Positions 1-9,508 of a DNA stretch of 9,508 nucleotides are shown here, in pieces (positions within the stretch are counted from its first letter, which is position 1; each line of letters begins with the position of its first letter). The notes below the pieces were generated by a model. The model made no database searches. It saw only the letters and a list, made by a program, of their open reading frames with translations, and had not been told where the DNA came from. A program made the translations under genes and the position numbers. The stretch is taken from positions 1-9,508 of the forward strand of contig NZ_FUWK01000061.1 in NCBI RefSeq assembly GCF_900167395.1, in the 5' to 3' direction. The DNA is from Nitrosomonas europaea (GTDB lineage Bacteria; Pseudomonadota; Gammaproteobacteria; Burkholderiales; Nitrosomonadaceae).

Positions 1-89
1 CGATAAAATTACCGAATTGAATAACTGAATCTGATCTAACAGGCACTCGTCAAATCGGGTAACTGTCAGATCAGATCTCAACTACTACA
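1..89 (+). mobile_element. IRR-type end of an IS481-like insertion sequence (element body lies left of the window)
   Basis: Positions 63-89 (ctgtcagatcagatctcaactactaca) are the reverse complement of 9214-9240 (tgtagtagttcagatttgatctgacag), matching at 25 of 27 positions. The 9214-9240 copy precedes a transposase ORF. A subterminal 13-mer ttacccgRtttga occurs at 50-62 (rc) and at 9263-9275, at different offsets from the tip. That is expected for IRR versus IRL of one IS type. The TGT terminus fits the IS481 family. Confidence 0.6.
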
Positions 90-334
90 CCTGAATATTT
101 TGAAGACTGTATCAAAAAAATCTTCCCTGTTCACAGAAGCTGTCACAGCCATATTCATGAAATGGAGCAAGTCCTGTTTGACAGGCTCGGAACAATGTTT
201 CGGAATGACTTTGCACAAGCCGCATCAGCATAGAACAGAAAATTTAATTGCTATCTATTTTTAACACTTTGATTTTGAATTGAATAGTTAACGCATACCG
301 TTGTATGTGTGTCGTTTTCATCTCCGTAGATCAT

Positions 335-721
335 CTATAAATCCACAAGGGCCTTAAATCCACCGTAGGCCATCCGTGAGGGATCGAACGGCATGTTGTT
401 TTCATCACAAGCTTCTTGCATGCGCGGGTCGGCCATCACTTTTTTGTTCACTTCATCCCGGTGTTCGCGTGATTTATAGACGATAAAGGCAAAAATAACA
501 GTCTCTCCATCTTTTGTCCCCGCCAGTTTGCCGAACGGCGTTATTTTGCATGTTTCAGGTGCGTCTTCGGGCATTTCCGGTTTGGCATCTTCCAGCACGC
601 ATTCCTTGTATTGGAGCGCACCGTGTTCCATCCAGATTTTTCCTGCGCTTTCTGCCATTTGACGGTAAGCGTCAATTTTGCCTTCCGGCACAGGTAAAAC
701 AAATCCATCTACGTAAGTCAT
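335..721 (-). CDS. DUF1428 family protein (YbaA-like)
   Basis: The ORF track entry is 335..727. The translation MTYVDGFVLPVPEGKIDAYRQMAE...FIVYKSREHRDEVNKKVMADPR matches the DUF1428 pattern as I recall it. I prefer the ATG at 719-721 over the TTG at 725-727. It is the last gene of a co-directional minus-strand cluster. Confidence 0.8.
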   Translation of the reverse strand: MTYVDGFVLPVPEGKIDAYRQMAESAGKIWMEHGALQYKECVLEDAKPEMPEDAPETCKITPFGKLAGTKDGETVIFAFIVYKSREHRDEVNKKVMADPRMQEACDENNMPFDPSRMAYGGFKALVDL

Positions 722-799
722 AATCAAAAAACCTTTTTTGTGATTTATAAAATCGTATCTATCTTTTTTCGTGTGTCTTCACCCACCTGAATGATATTC

Positions 800-1279
800 T
801 CATTCGCGCACCGCAGCTTCGAGCGCAGCAATATTGATTTTGTTCATCGTCATCATCGCCTCGAAAGCACGTTTCGCTTTATCACGGTCTGATCCTGTCG
901 TCAGCTCCATGAGCCGCTTTGGCGTGATCTGCCAGAAAAAACCCCAACGATCCTGACACCAGCCACAATTATTCTCGCTGCCGCCGTTCTCTATGATCGC
1001 GTTCCAATAGCGGTCGGTTTCTTCCTGGTCGTTGGTCAGCACCATAAAGCTAACGGCTTGGTCAGGGGTAAAATTCGGCCCGCCATTCAAGCCGATAAAC
1101 GACTGCCCGAGCACGGTGAATTCAACGGTCAATTCATTGCCTTCCTGTCCGCCGGGAAAATCGCCGGGCGCGGTATTCACCCGTTCCACACGGCTATCGG
1201 GAAAGGTAGCGGCATAAAATTCTGCCGCTTTGCCCGCTTCGCCGTGGTCGAACCACAGGCATGTTGCAATTTTCTGCAT
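800..1279 (-). CDS. PhnB/VOC-like protein (3-demethylubiquinone-9 3-methyltransferase-domain family, PF06983-like)
   Basis: [29 protein letters not shown]...[15 protein letters not shown] is the typical signature of this family. I chose the ATG at 1277-1279 because it is preceded by AGGAGA (rc of 1284-1289). The longer track ORF (to 1351) would overlap the upstream gene. Confidence 0.85.
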
Positions 1280-1301
1280 GGATATTCTCCTGTTGATCAT
1301 T

Positions 1302-1553
1302 TTATCGGTGCGGGCAGCCGGGCCAGCAGCAAGGGCGGCGTTTACCTTCACTCAGACTTTCACAGCCCCAATTGATTCTCTTATTCCTCGTAGCTATTTT
1401 CTTGGCGGATTCGACCCAGCATATCCACTCATTGCGAGCAAGCGGGGTAATATCCTCCCAGGTTTCCAGGGCTTCAGGATGGGCAATCAAGGCTTTTTTT
1501 AAATCTTCCGGCAATTCATGAACCATACCGCCGGATATCTCTCTTTTTGTCAT
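1302..1553 (-). CDS. YdeI/OmpD-associated (OmdA) family small protein
   Basis: [47 protein letters not shown]...[14 protein letters not shown] matches the OmdA/YdeI C-terminal domain pattern. An alternative start is the ATG at 1524-1526. Confidence 0.75.
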
Positions 1554-1574
1554 TGCCTGTCTTTCTTGTGGCCA

Positions 1575-2087
1575 TCAGTACGCCTTTTCTTGTTTCAGCA
1601 ATTCTTCAAGCTGCGTAATCGTTGTGCCCCAACCTTCGTGGAAGCCCATCTCTTCATGCAATTTTCTTTGTCCTGGCGTATTATGCATCGCACAAGCCGT
1701 ATACCGGGTCCCCGATGATGTTGGCTGTAGCTCTATTACGGCAGTCATGACGATGTGGGCGCATTCTTTATCGCTCGTTGTGGCGGGTACGGCGGGTCTA
1801 TAATTTTTTACCAGGGCGCTTGTCCATATCAGACGTTTTTCATCTGTAACCTCCAGAAAGCATCCCGAGTTCGGAAATTTATTACCTTCCGGGTCTTGCA
1901 TGACCGTATAAAACTCTCCCCCAGGACGCAGATCAACCCGGCAATCTGAAATGCTCCAGGGTTTTGGAACAAACCATTTTTTAAGCAGTTCCGGTTCGGT
2001 CAGGCCGCGCCATACCAAATTTACAGGGACAGCCAGTTCTCGTTTAAGCATGAGGTCCAGCTCGGCATCAATTGGTGTTGTGCTCAT
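1575..2087 (-). CDS. SRPBCC superfamily protein, AHSA1 (activator of Hsp90 ATPase homolog 1-like) type
   Basis: The translation reads LKRELAVPVNLVWRGLTEPELLKKWFVPKPW...GWGTTITQLEELL. The start ATG at 2085-2087 is preceded by AAGGAAAT. It overlaps the upstream arsR-type gene by 20 nt, the common ArsR-SRPBCC gene pair arrangement. Confidence 0.85.
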   Translation of the reverse strand: MSTTPIDAELDLMLKRELAVPVNLVWRGLTEPELLKKWFVPKPWSISDCRVDLRPGGEFYTVMQDPEGNKFPNSGCFLEVTDEKRLIWTSALVKNYRPAVPATTSDKECAHIVMTAVIELQPTSSGTRYTACAMHNTPGQRKLHEEMGFHEGWGTTITQLEELLKQEKAY

Positions 2088-2430
2088 CGTTATTTCCTTT
2101 CGGTGTGTTATGTTCTGTTAAAAGCAATGCATCCAATGCGTCAAAACGTTCGTTCCAGAATTTCCGCATTTGGCTCAGCCATTCCCACATTTCATCCACG
2201 CCTTGCGGGTTTATAGAATATATACGCTGCTGCGCTCGCTTCTCCATCTTCACCAGTTCGGCTTCCCGCAACACTTTGAGGTGCTGCGATACGGCAGACG
2301 GGCTAATATCAAACTGATTACTGATATCCGAAGCGGCAATCTCCCCCTGCGCTGCTATGATCTCGATCATGCGGCGGCGGTTCGGTTCGGCGAGGGCTGC
2401 GAATCTATCCATATTTTCATTATTTAGCAT
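2068..2430 (-). CDS. ArsR/SmtB family transcriptional regulator
   Basis: FAALAEPNRRRMIEIIAAQGEIAASDISNQFDISPSAVSQHLKVLREAELV is the canonical ArsR winged-HTH. The start is uncertain (ATG at 2428-2430 or 2410-2412). The track ORF extending to 2490 runs through AT-rich promoter-like DNA and is unlikely to be translated. Confidence 0.85.
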   Translation of the reverse strand: MLNNENMDRFAALAEPNRRRMIEIIAAQGEIAASDISNQFDISPSAVSQHLKVLREAELVKMEKRAQQRIYSINPQGVDEMWEWLSQMRKFWNERFDALDALLLTEHNTPKGNNDEHNTN

Positions 2431-2500
2431 TAAATTAATTAAGTAAATTATGAAATAATGGGATGTGCCGTGGAATAAATAATAAGGCATTGTCGATTAA

Positions 2501-2662
2501 CGAATAACCGAAACCGAACCAGTCGAACGCGGTGCTATCTACAAGAAAGCTGAGGAACCGTGGGTTTCTTTTGCTGTTGAAGATCAGAGACTGATCACTG
2601 GACAGAATCTCGCCTCTGGCGGTGCTGTTGCAGATTTGCTGATTAAAGCCCTTGGGAAGTAA
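2501..2662 (+). pseudogene. 3' remnant (last ~53 codons) of a DJ-1/PfpI (type 1 glutamine amidotransferase-like) gene
   Basis: My own translation of the plus-strand frame ending at TAA 2660-2662 is RITETEPVERGAIYKKAEEPWVSFAVEDQRLITGQNLASGGAVADLLIKALGK. The motif D-x-x-LITGQN-x-AS...A..L is the characteristic C-terminus of DJ-1/PfpI proteins. An in-frame TAA lies at 2498-2500, and AT-rich DNA full of stops lies upstream, so the 5' part is missing. Confidence 0.6.
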
Positions 2663-2690
2663 AGTCTGAGGGGCCATAACCAATCTTCAA

Positions 2691-2719
2691 TTGCTTCTTA
2701 TACCAATAAATATTATAAT
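2691..2719 (+). promoter_or_regulatory. Sigma70-type promoter for parDE
   Basis: The -35 element is TTGCTT at 2691-2696, followed by a 17-nt spacer and a perfect TATAAT at 2714-2719. This lies 31 nt upstream of the parD ATG. GAGGAG is at 2739-2744. An imperfect dyad ATACC...GGTAT (2700-2726) overlaps it and could be the ParD operator. Confidence 0.6.
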
Positions 2720-2749
2720 TAGGTATATGCGTTTATTGAGGAGCAGGTT

Positions 2750-2992
2750 ATGCCGATACAAAAAAATACCAGTGTCACGCTGGGCGAGCATTTTGAGAAG
2801 TTTCTTGCACATCAGATTGAAGCCGGGCGCTACGGCTCGGCAAGTGAAGCGATCCGCGCGGGGCTGCGTCTGCTGGAAGAACGCGAGGCCAAGCTGGAAG
2901 CATTACGCCGTGCCCTGATCGAGGGCGAGCAAAGCGGCCCGGCTGATTATTCCCTGCAAAATGTTCTGGATGAGCTGGAAAGTGCAGACTAG
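2750..2992 (+). CDS. parD: Type II antitoxin, ParD family (CopG/RHH-like)
   Basis: NTSVTLGEHFEKFLAHQIEAGRYGSASEAIRAGLRLLEEREAKLEALRRALIEGEQSG is the canonical ParD (COG3609) sequence pattern. Its stop TAG at 2990-2992 abuts the ATG of the toxin gene. Confidence 0.9.
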   Translation: MPIQKNTSVTLGEHFEKFLAHQIEAGRYGSASEAIRAGLRLLEEREAKLEALRRALIEGEQSGPADYSLQNVLDELESAD

Positions 2993-3286
2993 ATGGGATC
3001 GTTTATCCTCAGGCAGAAAGCAATGGATGATTTACTGTCCATTGGCCGCTACACCCGAAAAGAATGGGGAAAAACCCAACAAATCCGCTATCTGACACAG
3101 CTTGACCGTGCATTTCATGAACTGGCGGACAAGCCCGGTCTGGGCCGGGCGTGTGATGATATCCGGGAAGGCTATTTCAAGTATGGGGTTGGTAAACATG
3201 TCATTTTTTACCGTCATACTGGAAAAGACCAAATTGAGATTATCCGTATCTTGCATGGCCGTATGGATATCGAACAGCATTTGTAA
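2993..3286 (+). CDS. parE: Type II toxin, RelE/ParE family
   Basis: The protein is 97 aa with ...HVIFYRHTGKDQIEIIRILHGRMDIEQHL, the typical ParE C-terminus. It lies immediately downstream of parD with no intergenic gap. Confidence 0.9.
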   Translation: MGSFILRQKAMDDLLSIGRYTRKEWGKTQQIRYLTQLDRAFHELADKPGLGRACDDIREGYFKYGVGKHVIFYRHTGKDQIEIIRILHGRMDIEQHL

Positions 3287-3321
3287 TGCTGTTTTTCTAT
3301 TTTACGGCCCTGATTCCATTA

Positions 3322-3358
3322 CCGCCGAAAACCATAGGATTTCGGCGGCACGATTTTT
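3322..3358 (+). terminator. Probable rho-independent terminator after parE
   Basis: A 9-bp perfect stem forms between CCGCCGAAA (3322-3330) and TTTCGGCGG (3340-3348) with a 9-nt loop. It is followed by cacgaTTTTT. It sits between the convergent parE and ardA genes. Confidence 0.55.
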
Positions 3359-3418
3359 CCCTCCAAACAGAGAAACTAAGCACTGCTGGCTGAAACCTGC
3401 AGCGCTTTGCTATGGTCT

Positions 3419-3934
3419 TTAGTGATTCCAGAAGATATGCACCTCTTCCCATCCTGTTTCCAGGGTGAACACATCGCCGTTTAGCTCCATATCGCGGGCC
3501 ATACGCTCGTAATCGATATAGTAAACGAGATTTACGGGAATCTGCGTGGTGTCTTCGGTTAGTTCTTCCGCAAAATCGGCCAGTGATTGATAGCAGCCGC
3601 AGTAATTTTCCTCTGCCGCTGTTCTGGCTTCTTCCAGGTCACCACTAAGATGATCCAGCAGTTCACTGCCGAAATCCGGATATTCGGTAATGAAGCAAGC
3701 CACCTCATGGGCGGTTTCAAGCCCTGCATACTCGCTTAAAATAAATCCGCCAAAGCCTTCATGGTCATGTATCGCATATTCCTCCGCGAAGTCTTCCGGA
3801 CTGTCAGTCAGCATCTGATTCACTTGTTCCCGGATAGCTTCCAGGTCGTCGGTCGCATTGATCCAGACACCATGAAGTTTGCCATTGTTGTAAGCCGCCA
3901 AATCTGCAACATAGATTCTGATCTCGGTGCACAT
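3419..3934 (-). CDS. ardA: Antirestriction protein ArdA (DNA-mimic inhibitor of type I restriction-modification)
   Basis: IYVADLAAYNNGKLHGVWINATDD...EEYAIHDHEGFGG...YYIDYERMARDMELNGD matches the ArdA family (PF07275) along its whole length as I recall it, for example against Tn916 Orf18 and ColIb ArdA. A strong AGGAGA lies 8 nt upstream of the ATG. Confidence 0.9.
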   Translation of the reverse strand: MCTEIRIYVADLAAYNNGKLHGVWINATDDLEAIREQVNQMLTDSPEDFAEEYAIHDHEGFGGFILSEYAGLETAHEVACFITEYPDFGSELLDHLSGDLEEARTAAEENYCGCYQSLADFAEELTEDTTQIPVNLVYYIDYERMARDMELNGDVFTLETGWEEVHIFWNH

Positions 3935-3959
3935 TGTCTTTTTCTCCTAATTCGGTGTT

Positions 3960-3998
3960 GGGGTTCAGAGCAAAGCGCTTTGCCTCGCTCAGAACCCC
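3960..3998. repeat. Imperfect 17-bp-arm inverted repeat in the ardA leader
   Basis: GGGGTTCAGAGCAAAGC (3960-3976) faces GCCTCGCTCAGAACCCC (3982-3998), giving 14 of 17 pairs. It contains the perfect 12-bp palindrome CAAAGCGCTTTG (3971-3982). It lies 26-64 nt upstream of the ardA start. Confidence 0.7.
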
Positions 3999-4029
3999 TG
4001 CCGACTAGGGCGACTAAGGCGGTCGTGAA

Positions 4030-4102
4030 AAAGTCAAGAAAAATTGCGGAGGGTCTACCCCACGTAGTGGATCAGGTGGAAACCGTCATTTTTCTTGACT
4101 TT
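4030..4102. repeat. Perfect 15-bp inverted repeat with ~43-nt spacer upstream of ardA
   Basis: AAAGTCAAGAAAAAT (4030-4044) faces ATTTTTCTTGACTTT (4088-4102). The pairing can extend by CGG/CCG (4047-4049 with 4083-4085). Each arm carries a TTGACT -35-like hexamer pointing outward. Tandem 9-mers cgactaggg and cgactaagg lie at 4002-4019. Confidence 0.7.
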
Positions 4103-4371
4103 GAGGGGGACAAGAACCCATCCGGTTTTATCGTCCATAAGTATTTATGAATAATGTTCTCTGCTTTAATTAACAAATTGTACTCATTACCCGTAATCAG
4201 AGCACCGCAAGCAGCAGAGTACTTTTTGATAGGCATACTTAACCACTTATTAACCCCTTCCTGTTAATGTAAAAGGGCCATTTTGCGTATGTGGCAACAC
4301 TTTGCGCAACTTGAGATCAACCGGGAGGCAGGGACATTGGGGCGTGGTGTGCCTGAAATTTCATCGAGAGT

Positions 4372-4421
4372 GGTTCAGAATAATTACATTATTCTGAACC
4401 TTTGGTATGCGGTAGCATACC
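4372..4421. repeat. Perfect 13-bp-arm palindrome followed by two mutually exclusive short hairpins
   Basis: GGTTCAGAATAAT-tac-ATTATTCTGAACC occupies 4372-4400. Next comes GGTATGC-ggta-GCATACC at 4404-4421, which overlaps GCGGT-agcat-ACCGC at 4409-4423. The region lies 40-90 nt upstream of the 4461 ORF. Confidence 0.7.
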
Positions 4422-4460
4422 GCGCCTTTCTGGTAGCCCAACTTTCTGTCGGGGCCGCCC

Positions 4461-5258
4461 ATGGTTAAGCCGACCGATGCAGAATTGCGGACTTCTGGCG
4501 GATTGACCAGTGTTTTTCTGAATTGCGATACTTGCCTGTCCGACGAAGACTTCAACCGTCTGCGCCGCATGGAGTTCACTCAAAATGAACACGCCATTTT
4601 GTACGGCCAGCTTGGCGGTTCCATCGCCGGGATGATCGAGCTTGGCCCGGTTGCCAGCCGAACCCAATCCAGACAAGACGAAGAACGCAAGACCGAAGAG
4701 CGCCGGACAGCACAGTTTGTTCAACTGGTTGAACAAATGCGCGCTTCCATTGAACAGATGGAAGCCGATGTCAAACGCCTCGTTGCATCATTCGAGAAAC
4801 GTGACGGGGATGCATGGCGCGAGAAGCTCGCGCTCAATATTCTAGAAGCTGACGAGATTCCACAACAGGAAGCAGATGAAAGCATTACTGCGTACCGCAA
4901 ACGACTGGAACAGCATCTCATCAATGAAATGCTGAACCCGGACGGTACGATCAAGGACAAGTACAAAAACGACCCGAAATATGGCGACTACGCCGAATGG
5001 GCGCAGACGCAATTCCACTTAAACAGCGCCAAAGCAGCTGTCGCGGAACTGGATAACAGTGATACCAGCCCGCAACGCAAGGAACACATTCTCGATGAAA
5101 TGAAACAACGCGGCTATATCGAGGAAATGGTATTTACTGATCGTATATCTGGAAATTTGGACGCACAAAAGTCAGTACGTGATATTCGTGATAGCCAGCA
5201 CGATGAAGCGCTTTCACAAGTACGACCTCCCGAAGCTACTTTGAAATTTTTGTCGTAA
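4461..5258 (+). CDS. Hypothetical protein, highly charged and coiled-coil-like, no family recognised
   Basis: This is a 265-codon ORF with no internal stops and a plausible amino-acid composition. There is no clear Shine-Dalgarno at 4461. In-frame alternative ATGs occur at 4569 and 4737, the latter directly after a 22-bp palindrome. Confidence 0.55.
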   Translation: MVKPTDAELRTSGGLTSVFLNCDTCLSDEDFNRLRRMEFTQNEHAILYGQLGGSIAGMIELGPVASRTQSRQDEERKTEERRTAQFVQLVEQMRASIEQMEADVKRLVASFEKRDGDAWREKLALNILEADEIPQQEADESITAYRKRLEQHLINEMLNPDGTIKDKYKNDPKYGDYAEWAQTQFHLNSAKAAVAELDNSDTSPQRKEHILDEMKQRGYIEEMVFTDRISGNLDAQKSVRDIRDSQHDEALSQVRPPEATLKFLS

Positions 5259-5259
5259 G

Positions 5260-5718
5260 CTACTGGAAGACGGGATTCGTGTTCGCCGCCCGTCTGGCAA
5301 TACCGGCAACCTGTTCACGTACATTGTCGATAAAAAATAATCCTTCCGTACCGCCACGAACATGAAACGCAATGCCAGCGGCAGGTGCATCGTTTTGTTC
5401 AAAGAAGAATTTGATGTTCGTCATGCCAAATTTTTTAAAATCCCGTGTAAGCACGGTCTTTATCTGATCATCCGTAACGCCCGACTGGGTTCCCATACGG
5501 ACAGAAATCCCTACTCCGTTGGGATTTTTTTCTGACCATTCACTTCCAGCCACATCGACACAAGGCTGTTTCCAGCAAGTGATATAGTCTTCCTTGGCCG
5601 ATAGCAATGCCTCCTGTGCGAAGGCAGCACTGCCGCTAAAAACTATAAACAATACTCCCCAAACTGTTATCCAAAGTCTGAAAAATCCATGATTTTTCAG
5701 TGCCTTGCACTGTGACAA
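5260..5718 (-). CDS. Small secreted/periplasmic protein of unknown function (Sec signal peptide)
   Basis: The N-terminus KALKNHGFFRLWITVWGVLFIVFSGSAAFA/QE has a basic n-region, a hydrophobic core and an AxA cleavage motif. The mature part contains a CWKQPC cysteine pair. The only in-frame start is the TTG at 5716-5718. Confidence 0.6.
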   Translation of the reverse strand: MSQCKALKNHGFFRLWITVWGVLFIVFSGSAAFAQEALLSAKEDYITCWKQPCVDVAGSEWSEKNPNGVGISVRMGTQSGVTDDQIKTVLTRDFKKFGMTNIKFFFEQNDAPAAGIAFHVRGGTEGLFFIDNVREQVAGIARRAANTNPVFQ

Positions 5719-5860
5719 AAGAGAACCATTTTGTCACAATTTGCATATTTTCTTATTGGTGGAAAAGCAGTCGATCTTGCTGGCTTTTCGACGTGATTAT
5801 TCCATTTTGAGTTGACGGGAGACGGTGATGAAGATAAGTCAAAAGGGTTCCCTTTTGTCT
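5711..5860. promoter_or_regulatory. res-like array of three dyad-symmetric sites upstream of the serine recombinase
   Basis: Site A is at 5711-5738: TGTGACAAAA-gagaacca-TTTTGTCACA (28 bp, perfect 10-bp arms). Site M is at 5759-5792: GTGGAAAAGC-14 nt-GCTTTTCGAC (34 bp, 9 of 10 arm matches). Site B is at 5837-5860: AGTCAAAAGGG-tt-CCCTTTTGTCT (24 bp, 10 of 11 arm matches). All half-sites share an N-C/G-AAAAG core. Confidence 0.5.
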
Positions 5861-5871
5861 AGGGATTGAAA

Positions 5872-6504
5872 ATGGAAAGCCAGCACAATCACGTAATGAA
5901 AAAATCATGCCGCATCATCGGTTATGCCCGTGTTTCGACAGAGGATCAGCATCTCGATCTTCAGATCGATGCTTTGAAACTGGCCGGATGCAGTAGTATT
6001 TTTGAAGATCACGGCTTGTCCGCCACCGCCAAACGGCGGCCCGGCTTTGAGCAGGCTTTAGCCAGCTTGCAGGCGGGTGATATTTTCGTGGTCTGGAAAA
6101 TGGACCGGGCCTTCCGCTCGCTCAAGAATGCGCTGGATATCTTGGAAGAATTCGAAAACCGCGCGATTGAATTCCGCTGTTTGACCGAAGATATCGATAC
6201 CACCACGCCAATGGGAAAATGCATGTACCAGATCCGCCATGCGTTTTCCGAACTGGAACGTAACCTCATTCGGGAGCGAACCAAAGCCGGAATGGAAGCC
6301 GCCCGACAACGCGGTGCCCATCTGGGCAGGCCGAAGAAACTGTCACGCGGTCAGATCATCCGGATGCAAAACTTGCTCCAACGTCAGCCCGATATGACTC
6401 CTGTGCAAATCGCAGATCAATTCGGCGTGTCTTCACGCACGATCTATCGCGCATTATCCAAATATTCAACTATCAAAGAAGAATTGGCAATCCATGCTGG
6501 ATAA
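5872..6504 (+). CDS. Small serine recombinase (resolvase/invertase family) with C-terminal HTH
   Basis: RIIGYARVSTEDQHLDLQIDAL contains the catalytic Ser motif. Other family motifs present are VVWKMDRAFRS, ELERNLIRERTKAGMEAARQRG and GRPKKL, plus the C-terminal HTH VQIADQFGVSSRTIYRAL. I chose the ATG at 5872 because of AGGGA upstream. The ATG at 5896 (MKKSCRIIGYARVS) is an equally plausible start, and the track uses the TTG at 5866. Confidence 0.9.
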   Translation: MESQHNHVMKKSCRIIGYARVSTEDQHLDLQIDALKLAGCSSIFEDHGLSATAKRRPGFEQALASLQAGDIFVVWKMDRAFRSLKNALDILEEFENRAIEFRCLTEDIDTTTPMGKCMYQIRHAFSELERNLIRERTKAGMEAARQRGAHLGRPKKLSRGQIIRMQNLLQRQPDMTPVQIADQFGVSSRTIYRALSKYSTIKEELAIHAG

Positions 6505-6682
6505 CCAAAACAGAATTCGTCACTACCGTGCCTACACGCGTATGTATGGTGAAATGATGCAGGATTTGTGCAGTTCCGAACATTACATCACCTACCTGAT
6601 CAACAATGACGGGCTGAATAAATTTGAAACCGGGCTGCGCACCCTGATCGAGAAATCCTTGAACCAGCCCATACGGTCCTGA
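6494..6682 (+). CDS. Small hypothetical protein (62 aa), possibly translationally coupled to the recombinase
   Basis: Its ATG at 6494 overlaps the recombinase stop (6502-6504) by 11 nt. No family was recognised and no independent support exists. Confidence 0.3.
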   Translation: MLDNQNRIRHYRAYTRMYGEMMQDLCSSEHYITYLINNDGLNKFETGLRTLIEKSLNQPIRS

Positions 6683-6785
6683 TAGTCTGTTTTCAGCTCA
6701 ATGTGGCGAGTCGTTTTTTATTGAATTCACACAAAATGAGGACGATAACGTTACATAACCAGAAAACTTAAAAAACTAAGCCACT

Positions 6786-6813
6786 TTGTCACCAATAGTC
6801 ACAAGAGTATGAA
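6786..6813 (+). promoter_or_regulatory. Candidate promoter for the P-loop NTPase gene
   Basis: TTGTCA (6786-6791), a 16-nt spacer and TATGAA (6808-6813) lie about 70 nt upstream of the ATG at 6882. The -35 region is part of a motif also found at the recombinase-proximal site A. Confidence 0.3.
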
Positions 6814-6881
6814 ACATATACGCAAAACCATGTAATTAGTTGTTAGAGACCTTGGATATCAGGGTATTTAAAGAGAAAAAT

Positions 6882-8324
6882 ATGGAATTTAATGAATACG
6901 AATTACAAAGGTTATTTGGCCACGAAGCAGCTGAAGATGAAGACCCTCAAAGGCTAAAAGATTACTACTTTAAAAGTAAAGTGTATTCTCAAGTCGTTAA
7001 CGATCTTCCGTTGCGGATAATAGTTGGTCATAAAGGCATAGGTAAGTCAGCCCTTTTCCAAGTTGCAATTGATGAGGAGACAGAAAATAAAAGGCTTACG
7101 GTTTTAATTAAGCCCGATGATATTATCGGCATAGGAGAAGATACCGATGATTTTCTAAAGCTTATAAGAGATTGGAAAATAGGAATTAATGCAATTATCA
7201 CACAAAAAGCCCTCACTTCATTTGGTATGCTTTTCGAGGGTTGGAGAGGAAAGCTAAATCAGTATGGTGGTACAGCGTTAGATTTCTTATCTTCAACCTT
7301 AAAACTAGAGGGCAAGGTTAGTTTGACTGCTTCAAAAGAAGCTATCCTGCGTGATTTTCTAAAAAATAACAAAATTTCAGTTTATATCGATGACCTAGAT
7401 AGAGGCTGGCAAGGCCGCAAGCACGATATACAGAGAATTTCTGCACTATTAAATGCTGTAAGAGATATATCGACTGAAAATAGAGGCATTTACTTTAGAG
7501 TGAGCTTGAGATCTGATGTTTACTATTTGGCGCGCACATCGGATGAATCAACTGACAAAACAGAAGGTTCAGTAATCTGGTATTCATGGACTAATCATGA
7601 GATCTTGGTTTTACTTGTCAAGAGGATTGAGAGTTACTTTGGTAGAGAAGTAGATGAGGCTGAACTACTGAAAAAGCATCAACTTGAATTAATGAGATAC
7701 CTTGCTCCCATAATTGAAGAGAAATTTACAGGAAAAGGGCATTGGAGAGATGCTCCTACGTACAGGGTATTAATGTCTTTGATCAGGAAACGTCCTCGTG
7801 ATTTAGTCAAACTACTAACTTTGGCAGGTAGAGAAGCAAGAACAAAAGACGCAGAGCGGATTACTACAAATCATTTAGAAAATATTTTTGAAGAATATTC
7901 GCAGGGTAGACTACAAGATACAATCAACGAATATCGTTCCGAGCTTCCTGAAATTGAAAAGCTAATTCTTGGTATGAGGCCGACAAAGATTCAGCGAAAA
8001 GCATCACAAGGCTATGTATATACGACAGACCAATTACTGAAAAAAATAAAAGCAATTGAAGAGCAAGGAAAATATCGCTGGGCAAATAGAAATCAGGTTG
8101 ACACTAAAGAACTGGCAGCATTCTTGTATAAAATAAACTTCATTACAGCTCGGAAACAAATACCTACAGGCATTGATAGAAAATATTTTGAAGAAAATAG
8201 GTACTTGTCGAATAAATTTATAGAGTTTGGCTATGATTGGGAGGTTCACCCTGCCTACCGTTGGGCACTTCAGCCTGAAGAGCCAATGCAAATTTTCAAT
8301 GAGCTAGAGTTGAGTTCTAGCTAA
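6882..8324 (+). CDS. P-loop NTPase, AAA+/STAND-like (possibly Sll1717/KAP-like), with a C-terminal winged-helix-like region. Candidate defence ATPase.
   Basis: Walker A GHKGIGKS is at nt 7026-7049. Walker B-like VYIDDLD is at nt 7380-7400. A downstream RPRDLVKLL motif resembles the lid/sensor-2 region of Orc1/Cdc6-like ATPases. The N-terminal FGHEAAEDE...L..YF motif precedes the P-loop. I prefer the ATG at 6882 (purine-rich AAAGAGAAAAAT upstream) over the track TTG at 6840. The gene is AT-rich relative to its neighbours. Confidence 0.8.
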   Translation: MEFNEYELQRLFGHEAAEDEDPQRLKDYYFKSKVYSQVVNDLPLRIIVGHKGIGKSALFQVAIDEETENKRLTVLIKPDDIIGIGEDTDDFLKLIRDWKIGINAIITQKALTSFGMLFEGWRGKLNQYGGTALDFLSSTLKLEGKVSLTASKEAILRDFLKNNKISVYIDDLDRGWQGRKHDIQRISALLNAVRDISTENRGIYFRVSLRSDVYYLARTSDESTDKTEGSVIWYSWTNHEILVLLVKRIESYFGREVDEAELLKKHQLELMRYLAPIIEEKFTGKGHWRDAPTYRVLMSLIRKRPRDLVKLLTLAGREARTKDAERITTNHLENIFEEYSQGRLQDTINEYRSELPEIEKLILGMRPTKIQRKASQGYVYTTDQLLKKIKAIEEQGKYRWANRNQVDTKELAAFLYKINFITARKQIPTGIDRKYFEENRYLSNKFIEFGYDWEVHPAYRWALQPEEPMQIFNELELSSS

Positions 8325-8399
8325 ACATGGCTCCTAATAAATACAAGTCTCAGATACAACTACGCCTCGCCAGTGGTATATGGACATTAGGTATCACAA

Positions 8400-9218
8400 A
8401 TGACTTATGACACTAATCTACCGTCCGAAGACGGCATCCCTGACGAAGGCAACGCCAAGAAAGTTGCGCGTGGAACCTTACAAGTCATCGGGGGGGCTGT
8501 GCCGCTGGTCGGCGGCCTACTGTCAGCTCTGGCAGGCGCATGGTCCGAGCGTGAGCAGGCCAAGGTCAATAGATTCTTCGAGCAGTGGGTTCGCATGTTG
8601 GAAGACGAGATTCGAGAGAAGGAAGCAACAGTTCTCGAAGTTATGGCCCGGCTGGACTTGCATGATGAAAAGATTGCGGCACGAGTCGAGAGCAAGGATT
8701 TTCAATCTCTTGTTAAGAAAACATTTCGAGACTGGGCTGGGGTGGAGAGTGAGGAGAAGCGCGTTCTCATCCGGAATATTCTGAGCAACGCAGCAGCCTC
8801 AACCCTCTCTAGCGACGATGTTGTACGCATGTTCATCGACTGGATTGGTCAGTACTCAGAACTTCACTTTCAGGTCATTGGTGCCATCTACAACTCGGGG
8901 GGCATCACTCGTGGTGCAATCTGGAAAAAAATTGGAAAGGGCCGTGTTCGCGAAGATTCAGCGGACGCGGACCTGTACAAATTGCTGTTTCGAGACCTCA
9001 GTACCGGTGGCGTCATCCGGCAACACCGCAAAACTGACTACTACGGCAACTTCGTCGCCAAATCCACGCAGAAGAAGTCGCCTGCTCGTTCAGGTGGAAC
9101 GAAGACTCTTACCTCGGCATTTGACGAGGAAGATCAGTATGTCCTTACTGAACTTGGACAACAGTTTGTTCACTACGCCATGACAGATCTGCCACTCCGG
9201 ATTGCCTATAAATTGTAG
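8400..9218 (+). CDS. Hypothetical protein with an N-terminal Gly/Ala-rich hydrophobic segment. Organisation is loosely reminiscent of Abi-alpha/DUF4393 proteins. The 3' end is formed by the IS terminus.
   Basis: This is a 272-codon ORF, 75 nt downstream of the NTPase on the same strand. It carries the hydrophobic stretch LQVIGGAVPLVGGLLSALAGAW (nt 8472-8543). The central ESEEKRVLIRNILSNAAAS...MFIDWIGQYSELHFQVIGAIY resembles, from memory only, the E-rich/ANLLANA core of DUF4393. The stop TAG (9216-9218) lies inside the IS inverted repeat that begins at 9214. Confidence 0.7.
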   Translation: MTYDTNLPSEDGIPDEGNAKKVARGTLQVIGGAVPLVGGLLSALAGAWSEREQAKVNRFFEQWVRMLEDEIREKEATVLEVMARLDLHDEKIAARVESKDFQSLVKKTFRDWAGVESEEKRVLIRNILSNAAASTLSSDDVVRMFIDWIGQYSELHFQVIGAIYNSGGITRGAIWKKIGKGRVREDSADADLYKLLFRDLSTGGVIRQHRKTDYYGNFVAKSTQKKSPARSGGTKTLTSAFDEEDQYVLTELGQQFVHYAMTDLPLRIAYKL

Positions 9219-9508
9219 TAGTTCAGATTTGATCTGACAGCAGGTCTTGCCAAGAGGTGGGATTACCCGGTTTGATAGAGGTGCGAATCTTTATCAACCA
9301 AACGCGAAAGCGTAAAGGAGTAATCCCATGAGCAGTGTTCATCATAAAATCATTAAACATAAGATTGGCTTGCTTAATCTGGCAGCTGAGCTTGGCAATG
9401 TATCCCGTGCCTGTAAGGTGATGGGTTTTTCTCGCGATACTTTCTATCGCTATCAGGCAGCTGTGGAAACAGGAGGTGTTGAAGCTCTGATAGATGCAAA
9501 CCGACGTA
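9214..9508 (+). mobile_element. IRL-type end of an IS481-like insertion sequence (continues past the window end)
   Basis: The terminal repeat tgtagtagttcagatttgatctgacag (9214-9240) is matched in inverted orientation at 63-89. The subterminal motif ttacccggtttga is at 9263-9275. The transposase ORF begins at 9328. Confidence 0.75.
9328..9508 (+). CDS. IS481-family-like DDE transposase, N-terminal HTH part (partial, open at the window end)
   Basis: My own translation is MSSVHHKIIKHKIGLLNLAAELGNVSRACKVMGFSRDTFYRYQAAVETGGVEALIDANRR. AAGGAG lies at 9315-9320, 7 nt before the ATG. The N-terminus resembles IS481-group transposases as I recall them. The family assignment is from memory. Confidence 0.7.
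   Translation, partial: MSSVHHKIIKHKIGLLNLAAELGNVSRACKVMGFSRDTFYRYQAAVETGGVEALIDANRR

Follow-up and report, generated by a model that had tools for sequence, protein, structure and literature searches.

Two neighboring genes in a mobile region of Nitrosomonas europaea raise the question of whether they form a single defense system or merely lie side by side. The window, by which we mean the whole stretch of 9,508 nucleotides (nt) analyzed here (contig NZ_FUWK01000061.1, positions 1–9,508), encodes a P-loop nucleoside triphosphatase (NTPase) of 480 amino acids (aa) followed, 75 nt downstream on the same strand, by a 272-aa protein. A sequence-only reading of the window had proposed that the two constitute an undescribed two-gene defense module. 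The open reading frames (ORFs), their spacing and strand, and the four NTPase motifs that it described can be read directly from the sequence, and the GC discontinuity that it noted is also there (37.4% for the NTPase gene versus 52.0% for the 272-aa gene; the resolvase gene upstream has 50.9%). As far as comparison of homologous loci can tell, however, the two are unrelated solo cargo genes and not a two-gene system, so that its own hedge, that the NTPase might act alone, agrees with all of our results. The NTPase itself can be assigned, by profile searches, to a named ATPase family with one validated single-gene anti-phage representative, DS-41.

The evidence comes from the neighborhoods in which relatives of the two genes are found. 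Homologous protein clusters number about 2,600 for the NTPase and about 2,600 for the 272-aa protein; both ORFs are therefore far beyond chance. For the NTPase we assembled 80 genome loci from many phyla (53–95% identity), each including as much as 10 kb of flank if the contig was long enough, and six viral contigs, together 86 loci outside N. europaea with relatives 47–95% identical. It turned out that the 272-aa gene occurs in none of the 86 (tblastn). The reciprocal search gave the same picture, with the NTPase found in none of 83 loci of 272-aa relatives (tblastn; 81 metagenome or viral loci, of which 37 have enough upstream DNA, at least 1.6 kb, and two genome loci). Moreover, clustering of neighboring ORFs revealed no conserved neighbor for either gene, in the case of the NTPase across the 80 genome loci. 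Within N. europaea the pair is kept in six of the six N. europaea-type contigs retrieved, but all of them have one element layout and are not independent occurrences.

The boundaries of DNA similarity tell how the two genes came together. Across loci, similarity ends with each ORF: that of the NTPase gene stops at about 8315–8323, and that of the downstream gene, which we call the 280-aa gene after the usual length of its homologs, starts from about 8384–8460. In a related element (loci L183 and L184), the 280-aa gene comes immediately after a block encoding a 265-aa protein, a 152-aa protein and a resolvase, and the NTPase is absent. This block (265-aa, plus strand; 152-aa, minus; resolvase, plus; 280-aa, plus) retains 72–75% DNA identity between window positions 4323–6458 and 8459–9213 and L183 positions 4679–7808; its first part alone, window 4323–6458, is 75% identical to L183 4679–6819 (blastn). 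Between the blastn blocks, 2,001 nt are unmatched in the window as opposed to 235 nt in L183. Since L183 and L184 have the resolvase and then the 280-aa gene directly, the NTPase cassette (about 6459–8458) is best read as a later insertion, apparently made beside a 280-aa gene that was already present. The nearest NTPase relative outside N. europaea, 95% identical and encoded by N. eutropha Nm24, sits between genes for ArdC and a TPR protein. As for the remainder of the block, neither the 265-aa nor the 152-aa protein matches any Pfam or NCBIfam family, and in L183 the 280-aa gene is followed by genes for CTD6, MC2, a 623-aa protein, AbiEii and an N6/N4 methylase.

What, then, is the NTPase? 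The sequence-only reading could not place it, yet it is a full-length member of NCBIfam family NF047389, "P-loop ATPase, Sll1717 family", scoring 225 bits against a cutoff of 75 (E = 2e-66), with residues 12–463 aligned end to end to profile positions 1–454 of 454. Consistent with this assignment, a 100% identical protein (P0001) is named by NCBI "P-loop ATPase, Sll1717 family [Nitrosomonas europaea]". The same profile also captures DS-41 (clone AAA2, WP_033812887.1, 502 aa), a single E. coli gene that protects against several BASEL phages (DefensePredictor study, Science 2026, PMC13092281). The 399 residues of DS-41 that are printed in the supplement of that paper, and that we used for scanning, score 92.2 bits on NF047389 over residues 14–394, above the cutoff, and DS-41 is thus a Sll1717-family protein itself. 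The window NTPase, on the other hand, represents a subfamily other than that of DS-41, because it failed the equivalog model NF053860, "DS41_1 anti-phage protein" (39.7 bits versus a cutoff of 370, N-terminal 84 residues only). Direct comparison of the two proteins was not significant by BLASTP (E = 0.04), and hhalign produced only a local match of 68 columns. At the level of profile alignment, the two proteins have only motifs in common. These are F(G/E)..AE.E, G..G.GKSA, IDxLD, SWxNxE and (R/S)PR(D/E)L(V/I)KL. Both proteins are products of single genes, about 480–500 aa long, without a recognizable effector domain, and DS-41 keeps the Walker A residues and R306 as the window NTPase does. What sets DS-41 apart is long insertions in the ATPase core and a Lys that replaces the second acidic residue of Walker B. 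Judged by these matches, the window NTPase is a further member of the family to which DS-41 belongs, and the defense role proposed for it is plausible, as that of a phage-defense gene of a kind already known.

Searches of other collections added little to this placement. In Pfam, the NTPase has sub-threshold matches only (ORC-CDC6-like, PF24389, 15.6 versus 27 bits; AAA_16, 16.9 versus 32.6 bits), and its score with the Orc1/Cdc6 model TIGR02928 is likewise below threshold (16.9 versus 181.3 bits). Among PHROGs it matches two families of unknown function, besides a weak match to PHROG 296, "DNA transposition protein", and a profile search of PDB sequences gave no real match. PADLOC-DB 2.0, whose models include Gabija, Septu, PARIS, Lamassu, Zorya, Tiamat and PDC/HEC candidates, returned zero families at E ≤ 1 for either the NTPase or the 272-aa protein, in line with the earlier statement that the pair is not Gabija-, Septu-, PARIS-, Lamassu- or Zorya-like by motif. 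Membership in the STAND or KAP groups, which had also been considered, found no support in Pfam. We rejected STAND, as there is no NACHT or NB-ARC match, no repeat domain within the 480 aa and only the sub-threshold AAA_16 match, and KAP (PF07693), whose P-loop domain is usually interrupted by transmembrane helices, as there is no Pfam match at E ≤ 1 and the most hydrophobic 19-aa window reaches only 1.2; a KAP name carried by one UniRef entry for an NTPase homolog is unsupported by the other results. Signature peptides of both window proteins were not found in the DefensePredictor supplements, no paper on "Sll1717" came up in the literature, and nothing relevant emerged when plasmids and E. 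coli genomes were searched for nearly identical DNA.

We took the ATG at 6882 as the start of the NTPase, because homologs begin with MxFxExEL; an alternative TTG at 6840 would give a protein of 494 aa. Among 83 homologs (47–95% identity), 103 alignment columns are at least 97% conserved, and they include the key residues of all four motifs listed in Table 1, which are invariant or nearly so. Walker A (GHKGIGKS), YIDDLD and R306 of RPRDL recur in two other family members, one encoded by ORF1 of the filamentous phage PfAC09 and the other by a Lactiplantibacillus plasmid. The catalytic motifs of a P-loop NTPase are therefore intact in the window protein as far as its sequence goes, and ATP hydrolysis is predicted. 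Pfam, PADLOC and hydropathy revealed no recognizable nuclease, TIR, SIR2, protease or membrane domain, which upholds the initial description of an AAA+/ORC-Cdc6-like P-loop NTPase without a recognizable enzymatic effector domain. Upstream of the gene, DNA homology to N. eutropha Nm24 (89% identity) begins at 6730, and in more distant loci only at about 6870–6880. A consensus scan for sigma-70 promoters gave no match on the plus strand. We also considered a conserved small ORF beside the NTPase and rejected it, as DNA homology among loci with 70–79% identity ends about 10–40 nt from the ORF.

The structural data hint at ORC-like ATPases. The AlphaFold model of the NTPase has a predicted local distance difference test score (pLDDT) of 62, with 40–60 for the C-terminal 80 residues. 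The top Foldseek matches are ORC4, Cdc6/Orc1 (2qby), BrxC, HslU, RdrA and TnsC, with ORC4 and 2qby first (E = 1e-4, template-modeling (TM) score about 0.2). The model suggests, but does not prove, a layout in which an AAA+ core is followed by a lid and then by a C-terminal helix and β-hairpin. It is this tentative layout in a low-confidence model, together with the resemblance of RPRDLVKLL to the Cdc6 lid motif, that makes up the possible likeness to Orc1/Cdc6 and ORC; in contrast, the sequence scores are far below thresholds, and neither origins nor replication genes are linked to the NTPase. BrxC (BREX) and RdrA (RADAR) are ORC/Cdc6-like or related AAA+ defense ATPases. They are, however, much larger and act within multi-gene systems, whereas the NTPase has no PADLOC match to BrxC or RdrA and no conserved partner genes.

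The distribution of NTPase relatives is wide. Those with 47–95% identity come from Pseudomonadota, Bacteroidota, Actinomycetota, Planctomycetota, Chloroflexota, Acidobacteriota and Bacillota. Their genes are more AT-rich than the flanks in 88 of 88 loci (drawn from L001–L080, L170–L175 and L185–L193), with a mean GC of 40% for the gene and 55% for the flanks, a difference of 14.8 points on average. A P2-like prophage of Serratia fonticola carries an 84%-identical copy by itself, flanked by the tail-fiber assembly and sheath genes, and in a viral contig (IMG/VR) a 62%-identical copy follows the fiber genes. The corresponding Z/fun region of P2 is a known site of horizontally acquired genes, among them the phage-exclusion gene Z/fun (PMC3091744), and the two relatives fill this slot as a lone gene. 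The slot is a genomic location and not a protein family, and the window NTPase is found in the cargo of an integrative conjugative element (ICE) instead. In Pseudomonas syringae, a relative adjoins type IIG and type I restriction-modification (RM) systems as well as the gene for the xenogeneic silencer MvaT, which lies upstream and is separated from the NTPase by one small ORF in one of two loci. Accessory ORF1 of the filamentous Pf phage PfAC09 (L176, 5950–7452) encodes a 25%-identical, full-length Sll1717 ATPase with 243 bits on NF047389; it is annotated as "DNA-binding protein" and lies at the genome end, in the accessory region adjoining the excisionase. Yet another Sll1717 family member is carried by a mobilizable Lactiplantibacillus plasmid of 13.6 kb. 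Within two genes on either side of the NTPase in 39 loci, we observed Hma, DUF499, HerA/DUF4297, a DISARM-type methylase, MADS and PDC-S20, along with many housekeeping genes. To judge from these neighborhoods, the NTPase behaves as an accessory gene that moves horizontally on its own and frequently ends up in defense hotspots.

The downstream gene has a history of its own. In its homologs, which are about 280 aa long, the native C-terminus reads ...RIAYKYKPAEDSST (tail ...YKYKPAEDSST); the window protein ends in ...RIAYKL* and lacks the last nine residues, because an insertion sequence (IS) of the IS481 family starts at 9214 and supplies the stop codon. The C-terminal truncation suspected from the sequence is thereby confirmed. 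An exhaustive HMMER search of the 280-aa family yielded 617 clusters at 50% identity, with full-length members of about 270–300 aa and no fusions. The 272-aa protein has no match in NCBIfam, PADLOC or PHROGs and nothing above noise in Pfam, and tblastn against plasmid and phage records found nothing. It features a hydrophobic glycine-zipper helix near the N-terminus (Kyte–Doolittle 19-aa maximum of 1.85 at residues 29–47), a long stretch predicted to be helical and, at residues 140–225, a basic region (isoelectric point 9.85). Its AlphaFold model has a pLDDT of 48 and was not used for a fold search. Two candidate domains were dropped. A winged helix, prompted by a weak histone H1/H5 match at residues 150–233 in a profile search of PDB sequences (E = 0.02), was lost with a deeper profile of 41 sequences and is treated as unproven; Abi_alpha (Pfam) was matched by one of 41 diverse family members (E = 2.4e-4), too weak for use.

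The genomic surroundings of the 280-aa family are more informative. In Chromobacterium vaccinii (L087, 6452–8843), a 79%-identical 280-aa gene begins 60 nt after KwaB of a Kiwa system (KwaA–KwaB), in an island with an integrase, AlpA and DUF927. Kiwa has no known requirement for a third gene, and the 280-aa gene is also found without Kiwa at other loci. The Burkholderia pseudomallei copy adjoins a filamentous prophage, and a PARIS-like AAA_15/AAA_21 ATPase is encoded two genes upstream of this copy. Elsewhere the 280-aa gene follows an HNH nuclease or precedes CTD6/MC2 and AbiEii genes, and family members also occur near resolvases, integrases, type I RM systems, and SMODS and STALD proteins. 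A unit of resolvase and 280-aa gene was rejected as a general rule, since resolvases account for only four of 150 neighbor proteins. The 280-aa family is unannotated, independently mobile by its distribution and resident in variable and defense islands, and the protein may be a separate solo defense or abortive-infection gene. Its recurrence near Kiwa, RM, PARIS-like ATPases and CBASS-type genes makes this unannotated family a reasonable candidate for screening.

Taken together, these observations lead us to favor, as the probable explanation, a solo DS-41-like defense ATPase that has been placed beside an unrelated gene. A Sll1717 ATPase would move between genomes as a bare AT-rich ORF; in N. 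europaea it would have entered the cargo region of a Nitrosomonas ICE at a point where a 280-aa gene already followed a resolvase gene, and would have come to lie between the two. The NTPase belongs to the Sll1717 family, has intact Walker A, Walker B and sensor-2 motifs, moves alone and has relatives placed in prophages and RM hotspots; its likeliest role would be single-gene anti-phage or anti-mobile-element defense of the DS-41 kind. On the grounds of a suggested ORC/Cdc6-like layout and the lack of a nuclease, TIR, SIR2 or protease domain, we propose an ORC/Cdc6-like protein that works as an ATP-gated switch. The C-terminal domain would recognize invader DNA or a DNA-bound invader protein, and the ATP-bound oligomer would itself be the effector, blocking replication or packaging of the phage genome by sequestration or remodeling.

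A number of points weigh against this explanation. The link to DS-41 depends on one subfamily-level hidden Markov model, NF047389; DS-41 is the only tested member of the family, and the window NTPase falls into a different subfamily, for which PADLOC-DB 2.0 gives no match. The structural model is weak (pLDDT 62, TM score about 0.2), so that the winged helix and the ORC-like layout are only suggested, and the mechanism is one that we infer, the DS-41 paper (PMC13092281) describing none. Many homologs are solitary genes in housekeeping surroundings; in Kangiella, Neisseria and P. aeruginosa, for instance, the gene is inserted singly between core genes. The pooled neighbor scans give families and not per-locus counts and thus do not amount to an enrichment over background. 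Finally, there are zero terminator-like sites within 6400–9508, hence none at the junction of the two genes. Co-transcription in this strain is therefore possible, although read-through from the NTPase into the 280-aa gene would be incidental to the insertion.

How do other explanations compare with the evidence? That the NTPase and the 272-aa protein make up one defense system, the former as sensor or motor and the latter as effector, would fit the common strand, the 75-nt gap with no terminator-like site in it and the retention of the pair in six N. europaea-type contigs, and the hydrophobic N-terminal helix could make the 272-aa protein a membrane effector. Nonetheless, the comparative data largely refute such a system, which we consider highly improbable: co-occurrence outside N. 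europaea is 0/86 and 0/83, L183 and L184 have the 280-aa gene after the resolvase without any NTPase, the two genes differ in GC content (37% versus 52%) with DNA homology ending at the limits of each ORF, and the six contigs amount to one element layout. Absence of linkage to the partner, which the sequence-only reading had itself named as evidence against the module, is what the loci show. Same-strand adjacency within an island does not make an operon, and here the reciprocal neighborhood test settled the question.

Two further explanations retain the NTPase as a solitary gene and give it another task. It might serve its mobile element as a DNA loader resembling ORC/Cdc6, TnsC, MuB or IstB, helping to initiate replication, to select targets or to partition the ICE or prophage. 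This would account for the Foldseek matches to ORC, Cdc6 and TnsC, for the weak TIGR02928 and PHROG 296 matches, and for the genes found next to some NTPase genes, namely the resolvase of the window, an IS3 transposase (P. aeruginosa) and IS30 (Lactiplantibacillus). However, we regard it as unlikely: in 80 loci the NTPase has no conserved neighbor that is a recombinase, a transposase or a replication partner, the ORC and transposition family matches lie far below threshold, and a position alone among housekeeping genes or within a prophage tail module makes no sense for a replication or transposition helper. Alternatively, the NTPase might be a selfish, addiction-type gene, or an anti-plasmid or anti-conjugation factor that excludes competitors of its ICE, rather than an anti-phage gene. 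Its place in ICE cargo near ArdA and ParDE here and near ArdC in N. eutropha agrees with such a role, as do its carriers, a Pf prophage, a P2-like prophage and a small plasmid, all of which compete with other elements. On the other hand, DS-41, the one member tested, protects against lytic phages, and we find exclusion of competitors improbable as well, even though the present data do not separate anti-phage from anti-plasmid activity. A bolder variant of the solo-gene explanation makes both neighbors separate immune genes. The NTPase would represent a Sll1717 subfamily that is spread across bacteria and lacks an effector, and would stop phages by binding invader DNA in an ORC-like, ATP-gated manner and not through an enzymatic activity; the 280-aa protein would be a one-protein abortive-infection switch that links DNA sensing (basic region) to membrane damage (glycine-zipper helix); we consider this combination doubtful.

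Should the solo DS-41-like ATPase that we favor prove to protect on its own, the example of DS-41 would be extended to a subfamily that is much larger, is conserved to a far higher degree and goes undetected by PADLOC 2.0. High conservation combined with the lack of an effector domain would also make it a clean model for how a lone ORC-like ATPase stops a phage. The remaining interest of the locus accordingly lies in the wide spread and conservation of this NTPase subfamily, in its missing effector domain and in the unannotated 280-aa family.

The features of the window are collected in Table 1.

Table 1. Features of the 9,508-nt window; positions are counted from its first nucleotide.
Feature	Position (nt)	Strand	Remark or evidence
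Run of small genes, ICE cargo	335–2490	−	upstream of ParDE and ArdA
ParD/ParE	2750–3286		toxin-antitoxin pair in the context
ArdA	3419–3934	−	mobile-element context
Serine recombinase (resolvase/invertase type)	5866–6504	+	Pfam Resolvase, 3e-45; left edge of ancestral block
Segment unmatched in L183/L184, AT-rich (37–41% GC), carrying the NTPase	6459–8458		read as insertion; blastn, GC profile
62-aa ORF	6494–6682	+	overlaps end of resolvase gene
Leader travelling with the NTPase gene, presumed promoter and ribosome-binding site	6730–6881	+	DNA homology to N. eutropha Nm24
Sll1717-family AAA+ P-loop ATPase, stand-alone, 480 aa	6882–8324	+	NF047389, 225 bits
Walker A, GHKGIGKS	7026–7049	+	residues 49–56
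Walker B, VYIDDLD	7380–7400	+	residues 167–173
Sensor-2/lid motif, RPRDLVKLL	7791–7817	+	residues 304–312
Putative C-terminal winged-helix region, FLYKINFITARK	8121–8156	+	residues 414–425
Junction of two independently acquired units	8325–8399		DNA homology edges
Truncated member (272 aa) of the unannotated 280-aa family	8400–9218	+	homolog comparison
Hydrophobic glycine-zipper helix	8475–8543	+	residues 26–48 of the 272-aa protein
Left end of IS481-family insertion sequence	9214–9508	+	homology break, NF033577, Pfam HTH_29
N-terminus of IS481 transposase	9328–9507	+	NF033577 transpos_IS481, 1.2e-08; Pfam HTH_29 also matched

The genomic context described by the sequence-only reading (ardA, parDE, a serine recombinase and an IS) was found in full, with the IS belonging to the IS481 family, and its interpretation as mobile-element cargo can be narrowed to ICE cargo. 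Over 8.8 kb the window is 95.6% identical in DNA to N. europaea CP157069.1 (L081), which is free of the IS; homology between the two stops at 9213, placing the IS start at 9214. Downstream of the 280-aa gene, this strain has genes for a Fic-domain protein (506 aa), a LysE exporter and a TraG/type IV secretion system (T4SS) coupling protein (L081, 9209–13618), which confirms that the whole region is ICE cargo. At the other end of the window, the minus-strand run of small genes encodes DUF1428, a 3-demethylubiquinone-9 methyltransferase-like protein, OmdA, AHSA1/SRPBCC and an ArsR-type helix-turn-helix regulator, according to the Pfam labels of L081. Within this run, positions 805–1032 have weak DNA similarity to Rhizobium replicons (plasmid collection).

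Two minor observations concern the inserted segment and its surroundings. The 62-aa ORF at the end of the resolvase gene is annotated as a gene in N. europaea assemblies; it lies within the N. europaea-unique part of the segment, has no counterpart in L183 or N. eutropha (L001) and has no family match. In Novimethylophilus, an 84.5%-identical IS481 copy (L015, 11528–11818) is located about 90 nt downstream of an NTPase homolog, which may be a coincidence or may reflect a common preference for AT-rich cargo.

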